Shown in pieces: positions 14 to 4,945 of a stretch of DNA of 31,811 nt. This DNA is from a virus. Its lineage: Duplodnaviria; Heunggongvirae; Uroviricota; Caudoviricetes. Numbering within the stretch: position 1 is the first letter of the stretch; every line of letters begins with the position of its first letter. The translations under genes were made by a program, and so were the position numbers. Location: positions 132,460 to 164,270 of IMG/VR virus record IMGVR_UViG_3300021431_000080, one strand, 5' to 3'. The notes under the pieces were generated by a model. It was given only the letters and a program-made list of their open reading frames with translations. It was not told the DNA's origin and did not search any database.

Positions 14-751
14 ATGCAGAGAAAGTTGTCCAAAAAAGTTGGTTCGAAGAAAGGACAACACAAGTCTAACAATTACATGAAGCTTCAACGAAAGATTTCG
101 AAGATAGACCAAAAGATTTCCCGTCGTAGAGAACAATACCAATATGAAGTCGTGTCTGATATTATCGAAAGAAAATGTGACTATATCGGAATTGAGGATC
201 TTAATGTAAAAGGAATGTCTTCTACAGGAAGACGCAAGAAAAACGAAAAACTTAGCCAAGACGAATATAATGCTCTTTCTGACGAGGAAAAGAAAAAATA
301 CAACAGAAAGAAGAAAAGAGGATTCAACAGGAACGTTCTGAACAACGGCATGTATTCCTTCAAAATGAAACTTGAACAAAAAGCTGTTGAATCTGGAAAA
401 GAGGTTGTGACAGTAGGAAGATTCTACCCGTCGTCACAAACATGTTCGAATTGCGGAGAAAAGAACAAGGTAACAAAAAATCTGAACGTTAGGAAATGGA
501 CATGTGAAAAGTGTGGAACTGTCCATGACAGGGATGTCAATGCTGCCAAGAACATACGAAACGAAGCAATAAGAATAAAGAACGAATGTGAGCCAACACA
601 TAAAAACCTACCGAGGTGTAACCGGGATGTCAAGTCTGCGGAGATCCATAAGAATGAAAACCAACAAGTGGTTGAAGTTCATAGGGTCGTTGAACCAGAA
701 ATACAAACTGTTTTTGTGGATGAACCAATTGAAAATGCTGTGATTACATGA
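14..751 (+). CDS. tnpB: TnpB-like RNA-guided nuclease (C-terminal part; CRISPR-adjacent, candidate miniature type V effector)
   Basis: RuvC-II IGIEDLNVKGM, YPSSQTCSNCG...WTCEKCG zinc ribbon, RuvC-III HDRDVNAAKNI. The frame is open to the window edge, so the gene starts upstream and RuvC-I is not visible. Confidence 0.85.
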   Translation: MQRKLSKKVGSKKGQHKSNNYMKLQRKISKIDQKISRRREQYQYEVVSDIIERKCDYIGIEDLNVKGMSSTGRRKKNEKLSQDEYNALSDEEKKKYNRKKKRGFNRNVLNNGMYSFKMKLEQKAVESGKEVVTVGRFYPSSQTCSNCGEKNKVTKNLNVRKWTCEKCGTVHDRDVNAAKNIRNEAIRIKNECEPTHKNLPRCNRDVKSAEIHKNENQQVVEVHRVVEPEIQTVFVDEPIENAVIT

Positions 752-756
752 AGTCT
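608..756 (+). ncRNA. Putative omegaRNA/tracr-like scaffold overlapping the tnpB 3' end
   Basis: Hairpin CCG-AGGTGTAAC-CGG (611-625) whose loop TGTAAC is complementary to GTTACA at the repeat 3' end. 708-720 CTGTTTTTGTGGA can pair with repeat segment TCCATAAGAAACAG. TnpB omegaRNAs are known to overlap the ORF 3' end. Boundaries approximate. Confidence 0.55.
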
Positions 757-978
757 AATGGAACTCCATAAGAAACAGAAGGTAGTTACAACAGCGTGCC
801 GTCAATGCCGTGAGTCTATTTGAATGGAACTCCATAAGAAACAGAAGGTAGTTACAACCGATAAGCCTAATGCAGCCGTCAGCGGCGAATGGAACTCCAT
901 AAGAAACAGAATGTAGTTACAACATATAGAGCTAATATTTCATCTGGAACTCCATAAGAAACAGAATGCAGTTACAAC
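757..978 (+). CRISPR. CRISPR array: 4 repeats of 36 nt (AATGGAACTCCATAAGAAACAGAAGGTAGTTACAAC), 3 spacers
   Basis: Repeats at 757-792, 823-858, 888-923 (1 mismatch) and 943-978 (4 mismatches). Unique spacers of 30, 29 and 19 nt. Degeneration towards the right suggests + orientation. Confidence 0.92.
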
Positions 979-997
979 AAAGAAGAACAAAAATAAT

Positions 998-1723
998 ATG
1001 AAGCAACAACACTTGAGACACATTACCTTCACTGGTGTAGACGAGATGGCAGACTTGAAGGGTCTGCAGGAACTTCAAAGTGAATATCCGATTGTAGAGT
1101 TCGGTGTTCTGTTTTCAAAAAACTGGAAGAACAACGGAAATAGGTATATCAATCCTGAATACATGAAGATCCTCGGAAGAAAGGGATTGAACCTTTCTTG
1201 TCATGCTTGTGGGAGCATCGCGAGGGATGCACTTCGTGGAAACTGGATGTCTCTTGAGCAGGTGACTAACGGAATGTATCCGTTCAAACGGTGCCAGCTT
1301 AACATCGCGAGAGCCGACATAAAGGAAGATGCCCTCAACACCACGCTTCCCGTCGGACTCGAAGAGGTTATCATCCAGCAAAGGGACGCTGATCATCTGT
1401 CGATATGGGACAGAATCCAGAACCATTACGGAATGTCCATCCTGTTCGATGCATCAGGCGGGAACGGAATCGACACAGGATTCGAGCCGTTCGCTATGGA
1501 GAATATCAGAATCGGTTACGCTGGTGGTATCACTCCTGAGAATGTCGCCGACAAACTCACGTTCCTTCTCAACAACGAGAATGTGTACGACTTCTGGATC
1601 GACATGGAGTCTGGTGTCAGAACAGATGACTGGTTCGACTTGAACAAGGTGGCTAAAGTTCTTGAGGTTTGCAAGCCTATAATCGAGAACCATAAAAATC
1701 AATTTGCTGAGGAGAAACAATGA
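998..1723 (+). CDS. Phosphoribosylanthranilate isomerase (TrpF)-like TIM-barrel protein
   Basis: C-terminal ILFDASGGNG...GYAGGITPENV...WIDMESGVRTDDWFDLNKV resembles the TrpF LLD-SGG-G / LAGGL-PENV / DVSSGVE phosphate-binding motifs. Confidence 0.65.
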   Translation: MKQQHLRHITFTGVDEMADLKGLQELQSEYPIVEFGVLFSKNWKNNGNRYINPEYMKILGRKGLNLSCHACGSIARDALRGNWMSLEQVTNGMYPFKRCQLNIARADIKEDALNTTLPVGLEEVIIQQRDADHLSIWDRIQNHYGMSILFDASGGNGIDTGFEPFAMENIRIGYAGGITPENVADKLTFLLNNENVYDFWIDMESGVRTDDWFDLNKVAKVLEVCKPIIENHKNQFAEEKQ

Positions 1724-4359: not shown

Positions 4360-4647
4360 ATGAAAACATACAAGGAGGAACTCAATGAGTTCATTGAAAT
4401 CTACGATTACATAAACGAGATGCACAACGCATTGTTGTACAAATCAGGAATGGAAAGTTACGATGCGTACAAGATGCTTTATGATAAAGCTTTCTCAGAC
4501 AAAGTGAACGGAAGGCTTCAGGAGATATTTCCGTTCGACTGGTGTGATCCAGATTGTGGATATGACGATGACTACCTTGCTTGGAAAAATGAGTTGGATC
4601 GTGCCGTTGAAAAAGTAAAAAATATTGTTGGATATGAAAACGATTGA
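4360..4647 (+). CDS. Hypothetical acidic protein
   Basis: 95 aa ORF, 1 nt after the previous stop. Confidence 0.75.
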   Translation: MKTYKEELNEFIEIYDYINEMHNALLYKSGMESYDAYKMLYDKAFSDKVNGRLQEIFPFDWCDPDCGYDDDYLAWKNELDRAVEKVKNIVGYEND

Positions 4648-4945
4648 CGGAAAAGAATTTGTCTATTATTCGTATGTAGCCGAAGGAGAAGCAGTTGCCA
4701 ACAAATCCTTGAATGTCACTGAATCTGTCATAAGAGGATTGAAAGACATCGCTAAAGGATATGATAATGCTGGCACAAAATGGTACATCTATCGCAGGGT
4801 GATGGATTTGTTGTTCGAGTCGCGCGGAACACACCCAAATGTCGAGTTTATCCTGACTAACACAATAATGAAGGATCCTAGACATCCGCTTGGTAAATAT
4901 GAACTCTTTACGGAGTTCGACACAAACACTCCGAATCTGATATAA
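4634..4945 (+). CDS. Hypothetical protein
   Basis: ORF 4625..4945; ATG at 4634 chosen as the likely start. Confidence 0.7.
   Translation: MKTIDGKEFVYYSYVAEGEAVANKSLNVTESVIRGLKDIAKGYDNAGTKWYIYRRVMDLLFESRGTHPNVEFILTNTIMKDPRHPLGKYELFTEFDTNTPNLI

Follow-up and report, generated by a model that had tools for sequence, protein, structure and literature searches.

Array-programmed relatives of TnpB have been described under the name TranC (Jin et al., Cell 2025). These TnpB-like effectors lie by short arrays, and their guide RNA is split into a tracrRNA (trans-activating CRISPR RNA, where CRISPR stands for short palindromic repeats that are clustered and regularly interspaced) and a crRNA (CRISPR RNA) (bioRxiv 10.64898/2026.03.27.714800; PMC13565253; PMC13639567); such splitting has recently been put forward to explain how a one-guide transposon nuclease becomes a many-guide CRISPR effector. 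The preprint also describes TranC arrays with repeats of 32-38 bp and no adaptation genes, a phage-borne member, CauTranC9, and a clade 3 (with OsTranC3) that is ISDra2-like with an enlargement inside RuvC as its sole change (bioRxiv 10.64898/2026.03.27.714800). LaTranC (PDB 9jfo and 9jfq) is assigned to TranC clade 11, and median array sizes of 4.5-5 repeats are reported. Here we describe a tnpB gene and the four-repeat array directly behind it in a giant gut or rumen phage. They stand on the + strand at the start of a 31,811-nucleotide stretch (the window), positions 132,460 to 164,270 of IMG/VR record IMGVR_UViG_3300021431_000080. The window is the final 31.8 kb of this record, which is 164,270 bp long, is estimated to be 57% complete and is a phage. 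We think it probable that the locus encodes a TnpB whose guide-RNA scaffold is embedded in its own gene, whose first repeat is fused to that scaffold and whose further repeat-spacer units dock on it by two short helices. Systems of the TranC kind, phage-borne examples included, have thus already been published, and the one described here is a further member.

The window locus and its relatives fit the definition of TranC, in that a TnpB-like effector nearer TnpB than Cas12 stands next to an array. As in the TranC systems, the effector is accompanied by a short array without cas1 or cas2, the repeats are 36 nt long, the arrays are small, and the guide RNA would be a transposon right-end RNA parted into a tracr-like portion and a repeat-spacer portion; like CauTranC9, the system is phage-borne. 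In contrast to TranC as described, the scaffold lies within the last 50 codons of the open reading frame (ORF) with the first repeat still fused to it, and the clade includes relatives with no, one or two repeats, its arrays being smaller (1-4 repeats). The window protein carries a 45-residue insertion after RuvC-II (residues 285-331), a likeness to clade 3 as described, and the window clade may be TranC clade 3. Judged by sequence, the protein is not of TranC clade 11, as it is much nearer to ISDra2 TnpB than to LaTranC (181 versus 117 bits; template modelling (TM) score 0.83 versus 0.62).

The window system agrees in several respects with the TnpBs of ISDra2 and ISFba1 (PDB 8h1j, 8bf8, 8exa and 8iaz). 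The proteins have their domains in one order, with a common catalytic triad and zinc ribbon; the gene's 3' end is overlapped by the omegaRNA (reRNA, right-end-element RNA); the guide follows the 3' end of the scaffold; and a long-range helix joins the last bases of the scaffold to an upstream loop. The window system differs from them in having several guides instead of one, in having neither an adjacent TnpA nor recognisable transposon ends, in standing under a phage promoter-like motif, and in the 45-residue insertion and longer tail of its protein. With Cas12f and Cas12n it shares descent from TnpB, RuvC and zinc ribbon, a putative tracrRNA plus crRNA arrangement and a guide 3' of the repeat, whereas sequence similarity is weak and the REC or WED expansion is missing from the window protein. 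Canonical type V (Cas12) systems differ in having an adaptation module (cas1/cas2, with or without cas4), of which neither Cas1 nor Cas2 was found in the 57%-complete record, and an expanded REC lobe.

By sequence and predicted fold the protein is a plain TnpB. Within the window, frame 2-751 is open from the edge, the ATG at 14 being an internal methionine, and holds the 3' two-thirds of the gene (1-751, the last 249 codons, with a TGA stop at 749-751). The start lies 646 nt 5' of the window, and the full gene (G000 131813-133210, equivalent to L001:854-2251 and to window -646 to 751) encodes 465 amino acids. E281 (RuvC-II), the zinc-ribbon cysteines C364, C367, C384 and C387, and D394 (RuvC-III) are encoded inside the window and D190 (RuvC-I) upstream of it; this triad and the CxxC…CxxC cysteines are invariant among 28 clade proteins. 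Pfam HTH_OrfB_IS605 (PF12323), OrfB_IS605 (PF01385) and Cas12f1-like_TNB (PF07282) all score over their cut-offs, as does NCBIfam guided_TnpB (273 bits, cut-off 100), whereas V_cas_c2c8 remains below its cut-off (104 bits, cut-off 350). Among solved structures, ISDra2 TnpB is the nearest natural relative by sequence (E 3e-52, 181 bits), ahead of LaTranC (E 1e-32, 117 bits), PDB 9j09 (E 4e-26), which the preprint gives as Cas12n (bioRxiv 10.64898/2026.03.27.714800), and Cas12f (E about 1e-6). An AlphaFold (AF2) model built from 28 clade sequences has a mean predicted local distance difference test (pLDDT) score of 76.9 with a confident core. It gives TM scores of 0.83 with ISDra2 TnpB, 0.79 with ISFba1 TnpB, 0.62 with LaTranC and 0.57 with AsCas12f, and Foldseek returns 8h1j (E 8e-29, TM 0.83). 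Two parts are poorly modelled, namely the insertion at 285-331, which is lysine-rich and which ISDra2 TnpB lacks, and the C-terminal tail 415-465, which is predicted to be disordered (pLDDT about 25). No REC or WED expansion of the Cas12 type is seen in the predicted fold. The nuclease is predicted to be intact and is probably active.

Four 36-nt repeats lie within 757-978, the first (R1, 757-792) beginning 6 nt past the TGA stop. R1 consists of a hairpin (ATGGA-AC-TCCAT), a segment AAACAG (773-778) and a tail GTTACA (785-790), followed by AC beside the guide. Spacer 1 (793-822, 30 nt), which would be the guide of a cis unit of scaffold, R1 and spacer, is followed by R2 (823-858), identical to R1, and by spacer 2 (859-887, 29 nt). 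R3 (888-923) has one mismatch, with its pairing segments intact; spacer 3 (924-942) is AT-rich and has only 19 nt, or 21 nt if R4 is counted from TGGAAC; and R4 (943-978) has four mismatches, mostly in its first 3 nt, while retaining AAACAG and GTTACAAC. The segments that pair with the scaffold are therefore retained in all four repeats. Tandem Repeats Finder scores the array at 206, and two exact 36-mers with two near copies at a period of 55-66 nt are far beyond chance; the repeat was not found elsewhere in the 164-kb record. Spacer 3 is probably part of a decayed distal unit. Spacers 1 and 2 have G+C contents of 53% and 62%, and since the phage genome stands at 41.5% this suggests a foreign origin for both. 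The earlier note, made from the window sequence, had described a TnpB frame ending at 751 with RuvC-II, RuvC-III and zinc-ribbon motifs, a protein still looking like plain TnpB, and a 36-nt-repeat array 6 nt further on. Each of these stands on the frame, the Pfam and NCBIfam matches, the residues, the lead of ISDra2 TnpB over LaTranC and Cas12f in both sequence and TM score, and the repeats themselves, and the upstream sequence that it recommended retrieving supplies the full length and D190.

One line of evidence for our reading is the pairing between the repeat and the end of the gene. The putative omegaRNA- or tracrRNA-like scaffold occupies 601-756, that is, the last 50 codons of tnpB and the 5 nt after the stop. 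It comprises a hairpin (611-613 with 623-625) whose loop contains TGTAAC (617-622), a central stem (635-647 with 684-699), an anti-repeat, CTGTTT, at 708-713 and, at about 714-750, a degenerate copy (R0) that resembles the repeat. In an alignment of 11 loci running from 602 to the end of repeat 1, RNAalifold, unprompted, returned two helices that join the repeat to single-copy segments inside the gene: a tail helix of GTTACA (785-790) with TGTAAC (617-622), and an anti-repeat helix of AAACAG (773-778) with CTGTTT (708-713). In the other sub-lineage the anti-repeat helix is TCATTC:GAATGA, with four of its six pairs compensatory, and in the relative L169 the tail helix is TGTACT:AGTACA. When this structure was scored as specified across the 11 loci, 96.5% of alignment cells were paired and 10 pairs carried compensatory double changes; none of 500 shuffles reached its score, and slid controls gave at most 43%. 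Both helices are kept, as AATTCAATT:AATTGAATT and TGTAT:ATACA, even in L204, whose protein is only 45% identical and whose repeat is unrelated. The scaffold is also constrained as RNA: identity at codon positions 1, 2 and 3 is 0.86, 0.81 and 0.86 within it, versus 0.83, 0.87 and 0.54 in the 240 nt upstream, where the third position is relaxed, and the peptide that it encodes is the disordered tail 415-465. A further match between 640-654 and the repeat (13 of 15 positions) is lost in relatives with other repeat sequences, and we rejected it as lineage-specific or due to chance. Rfam held no family for the scaffold or the repeats at E <=1.

RNA assemblies support the same arrangement. In each of two metatranscriptome runs, from samples that probably yielded the phage, one and the same pair of contigs is present, 601-786 and 757-852, without any difference to the window, and neither run has an RNA contig over tnpB 1-600. 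One contig joins the scaffold to R1, and the other spans spacer 1 and most of R2. Cover stops at R2, so that 853-999, with spacers 2 and 3, is not covered, which is no evidence of absence, and the contig breaks at 757, 786 and 852 are the expected effect of identical repeats on an assembly graph. Since carried-over DNA would have covered 1-600 as well, we take the contigs to reflect RNA. RNA spanning the scaffold, R1, spacer 1 and R2 is thus present and more abundant than the mRNA, and we regard this as supporting evidence, not as proof. Because the repeat covaries with the 3' end of the gene, and because of these RNA contigs, the array is tied to the TnpB guide RNA, of which the repeat is the end.

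A protein search recovered about 60 relatives (45-90% identity, 436-510 aa), beyond which only ordinary TnpBs of 360-410 aa at <=40% identity were found, and a maximum-likelihood tree shows the clade to be monophyletic with support of 100/100. All members come from metagenome assemblies, among phage genes such as those for portal protein, RecT, MazG and methyltransferases, and sequencing runs of 10 studies, from gut and bovine gut, contain relatives of the stretch itself. The clade was reached through look-ups of metagenome proteins and contigs only; a search of IMG/VR with the single protein gave no relatives, and a clade profile run against IMG/VR and GTDB genomes found no clade member among its best matches, which were all ordinary TnpBs (<=40% identity). 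DNA 3' of the gene is available for 13 distinct loci; P0002 and P0056, which are not among them, were assessed by gap length only. In 11 of the 13, two to four repeats start within a few bases of the stop or overlap it. L192 has a single repeat, and L169 has none: its RNA ends in the same tail, behind which comes flanking DNA, as is classical for TnpB. Of 16 spacers, 13 have a length of 29-31 nt although the lineages differ in repeat sequence. The spacers are lineage-specific, and they agree fully where several samples gave assemblies of one phage. The array-bearing loci sit in different phage contexts, and close relatives differ in their arrays: L002 (86% identity) has two repeats against four in the window, P0002 (90% identity) has a gap of 320 nt to the next gene against 246 nt, and of L171 and L172, which encode the same protein, the latter is without exactly one gene-proximal repeat-spacer unit. 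The earlier note had made its reading depend on homologs keeping arrays with differing spacers, as they do, and had assigned the array to TnpB; covariation, the RNA contigs and the recurrence of the layout, with 1-4 repeats, in a phage-borne clade of 31 proteins agree on that assignment. On the tree, array-less members may be either ancestral or secondary losses.

Based on these observations, we propose that the locus is an IS605-type TnpB domesticated by the phage, predicted to be nuclease-competent, whose guide RNA has been turned into a modular one. The region of about 601-756 would encode a single-copy RNA scaffold, and the 36-nt repeat would be the last part of the guide RNA, multiplied together with guides of about 30 nt. 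Each repeat would dock on the scaffold through the anti-repeat at 708-713, which would take AAACAG, and the loop at 617-622, which would take GTTACA. Repeat 1 would do so in cis, giving an omegaRNA-like single guide that carries spacer 1, and later repeats would dock in trans, as a crRNA does on a tracrRNA. Once processed and assembled into a ribonucleoprotein, the loaded TnpB would cut spacer-matching DNA beside a TAM (target-adjacent motif). Most likely it would be used against related phages that compete with this one, or to bring the cassette into such phages by homing. The 30 nt after the last repeat (979-1008), where the next gene has its ribosome-binding region and its start, would correspond to the classical TnpB guide position and would match a cassette-free allele; the array-less L169 likewise ends in scaffold, tail and flank.

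Several points weigh against this proposal. The covariation comes from few independent lineages, and L170 breaks two of the six tail pairs, a break masked by misalignment. Docking in trans depends on two 6-bp helices alone, and RNAduplex, given the scaffold and the repeat, chose another pairing and did not recover the two helices. The RNA evidence consists of assembled contigs, from which neither the strand nor the real ends can be read, and sequence common to related phages may have broken the assembly graph and so be part of the reason for the edge at 601. No adaptation genes were found that would account for the acquisition of spacers of fixed length; none of the three window spacers has a target in the searches described below; and the homing reading comes from one spacer in one relative.

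For the window spacers, neither the phage's own 164 kb nor any of the other loci searched yielded a target. Exact 20-mers of spacers 1 and 2 have no match in IMG/VR, GenBank phages give only chance-level matches to these two spacers (E >=0.6), two phage records gave no spacer match, and about 400 genomes from the family of a Bacteroidaceae metagenome-assembled genome (MAG) gave none at <=3 mismatches in 24 nt. The one informative target belongs to L007, where an N6 methyltransferase gene is split near its 5' end by the cassette (L007:2800-3000 and 4425-4660; L004:6900-6950), so that the former start codon with some 14 codons is left upstream and a new start follows the array. Spacer 2 of L007 matches the intact methyltransferase 5' end of a sister phage, L004, at 24 of 30 positions on the opposite strand (21 of 24 in the repeat-proximal part). 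The protospacer spans the insertion point, while L007's own downstream copy has diverged to 12 of 21 at this site. About 0.02 chance matches of this kind would be expected in the whole search. This single case hints that the array works as homing endonucleases do, or by excluding competitors. Virus-borne mini-CRISPR arrays used in interviral conflict are described (PMC6858448), and phage homing endonucleases and TnpB-assisted homing are reviewed (PMC13565253). The present system resembles both in being tiny and virus-carried and in that the L007 spacer aims at a sister phage's cassette-free allele; it differs from the mini-arrays in encoding its effector with the array instead of borrowing one from the host, and from homing endonucleases in that target specificity is RNA-encoded and multiplexed, not protein-encoded. 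As a speculation that we hold to be possible though doubtful, the mini-array could be a multiplexed device for homing and competition, in which the TnpB would retain its ancestral role, cleavage of the cassette-free allele, while several such targets, alleles of sister phages both near the insertion site and elsewhere, would be stored as 30-nt spacers, and to which host adaptation machinery could add spacers in trans. Such help from the host is conceivable because the 36/30-nt geometry and the end of the repeat are common to type VI arrays of the candidate host family. If so, CRISPR-like arrays in phages would at first serve selfish spread and warfare among phages, and not host defence.

The tnpB gene also stands behind a recurrent promoter-like motif, GTATCTTTGCA, which occurs at 30 sites in the phage record, all on the + strand, against 0.06 expected. 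One site (131783) lies 30 nt upstream of tnpB, those at 142908 and 151730 correspond to window 10449 and 19271, and 17 of the 30 have a longer form, CAGTATCTTTGCA, in common. From its recurrence we regard the motif as probably the phage's own promoter, and tnpB, which stands behind it, seems to be integrated in the expression programme of the phage itself. The element TAnnTTTG is typical of Bacteroidota promoters; its presence in GTATCTTTGCA hints that the host belongs to this phylum.

One competing account is that the repeats are a non-functional by-product of slippage or of right-end duplication, and that a functionally ordinary TnpB uses one guide, either the first spacer or the terminal flank. 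The arrays are indeed tiny (1-4 repeats), decay is seen in the distal units (R3, R4 and spacer 3 with its 19 nt), RNA cover extends only through R2, and L192 and L169 manage with one repeat or none. However, none of the four repeats has lost its pairing segments, the spacer length of 29-31 nt holds in 13 of 16 cases across lineages whose repeats differ, arrays turn over between close relatives (two repeats in L002 against four in the window; one unit between L171 and L172), and in L007 a meaningful target exists for an internal spacer. We therefore consider decay or duplication without function improbable, and less likely than a multi-guide TnpB.

Alternatively, the array could be a virus-borne mini-CRISPR array, or a repeat mimic, directed at a host Cas protein such as the type VI Cas13 of Bacteroidota, which it would borrow or jam, with TnpB as a bystander. 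RNA anti-CRISPRs exist, as the jamming variant would need. The use of virus-borne mini-arrays in interviral conflict is also known (PMC6858448). Among 301 genomes sampled for repeats from the Bacteroidaceae, the candidate host family as inferred from the promoter-like motif only, and belonging to the family of the MAG mentioned above, there are 36-nt repeats that end in TACAAC, with 30-nt spacers, by Cas13b and Cas13a (G164:C1:1991490-1992416; G038:C1:224039-225429 and 3132670-3133200). A third array adjoins a 1154-aa ORF that matches no NCBIfam model. The phage repeat is identical to those type VI repeats at 15-23 of 36 positions, with a best p of about 0.001 before correction for 28 tests. 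Nevertheless, similarity to the sampled host-family repeats is low (<=64%), the guide-side tail already ends the TnpB guide RNA in array-less relatives, there is covariation between two segments of the repeat and the TnpB scaffold, which is single-copy, one RNA contig joins that scaffold to R1, and a scan of IMG/VR for the repeat tail gave true arrays only beside TnpB-like genes. We judge a role with host Cas proteins unlikely and again prefer an array that serves its own TnpB; the weak resemblance to type VI repeats may be due to chance, or may have a bearing on how spacers are acquired in trans.

The same tail scan, in which no true array appeared away from a TnpB-like gene (the gene context of L229 was not covered), brought up three IMG/VR arrays (L223:852-1192, L229 and L230:5436-5775) with three to seven repeats of 36 nt and 30-nt spacers. 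Like the window repeat, theirs end in an 11-13-nt tail, (A)TGTAGTTACAAC, and in these arrays the tail's partner, TGTAA, lies within the repeat's own 5' end. The arrays of L223 and L230 stand directly behind a very distant TnpB-like ORF, that of L230 having 525 aa and no clear RuvC-I motif in its aligned part.

No tnpA adjoins the array-linked tnpB here or in any clade locus, and no transposon ends were identified. The sole TnpA in the record lies 60 kb away in another insertion sequence (IS), an ordinary IS200/IS605 (G000:C1:71763-73436, upstream of the window) whose Y1 TnpA (71763-72124, minus strand) was matched in two pieces, maybe owing to a frameshift, and whose TnpB has 387 aa. It is far-fetched that the cassette is still a mobile element of the IS200/IS605 type, which a TnpA would move in trans, with the repeats as multiple right ends that serve transposition and not guiding: the Y1 TnpA in the same phage, a strong GC-rich hairpin resembling a left end upstream of tnpB in L007 and the different sites of the cassette in L004 and L007 would fit, but TnpA is never adjacent, the genome's other TnpB, at just 34% identity, lacks an array, the window and L002 have both flanking genes in common, as vertical inheritance would have it, and multiple right ends leave 30-nt unique spacers unexplained.

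No other owner for the array was found in its surroundings. The genes upstream within 3 kb encode at most 222 aa and match no cas family, the downstream genes are small phage genes, and neither Cas1 nor Cas2 has a match anywhere in the 164-kb record. The earlier note's statements that the system is phage-encoded, that no separate cas effector is at hand and that cas1 and cas2 are not in view agree with this, the last now extending to the whole record. Its interpretation is supported in substance, and its proposal of a possibly recent, independent transition from TnpB to Cas12 is supported only indirectly. Directly 3' of the array, window 998-1723 encodes a 241-aa protein with a weak match to the phosphoribosylanthranilate isomerase (PRAI) family. 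This gene also adjoins the cassette in L002, L005 and the P0002 contig, and occurs without TnpB in L201, a 63-kb IMG/VR phage (45% identity, the sole relative in IMG/VR) that has no TnpB and no match to the window spacers. In L171, a 48%-identity relative, the gene directly upstream of tnpB (L171:2395-2994) has a GmrSD_N domain, which is type IV restriction-like, and the cassette sits among genes of defence or counter-defence type.

The clade shows the step from one guide to many unusually clearly, as it combines a plain TnpB, a scaffold inside the gene, a first repeat fused to that scaffold and relatives with no, one, two or four repeats, and it may be viewed as a natural intermediate between transposon and CRISPR. 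At 465 aa with an RNA of about 190 nt, the predicted and probably active nuclease is also a candidate compact editor. Finally, to judge from the one spacer target that is informative, the selective force would be homing or exclusion between phages, which bears on why arrays recur in phages.

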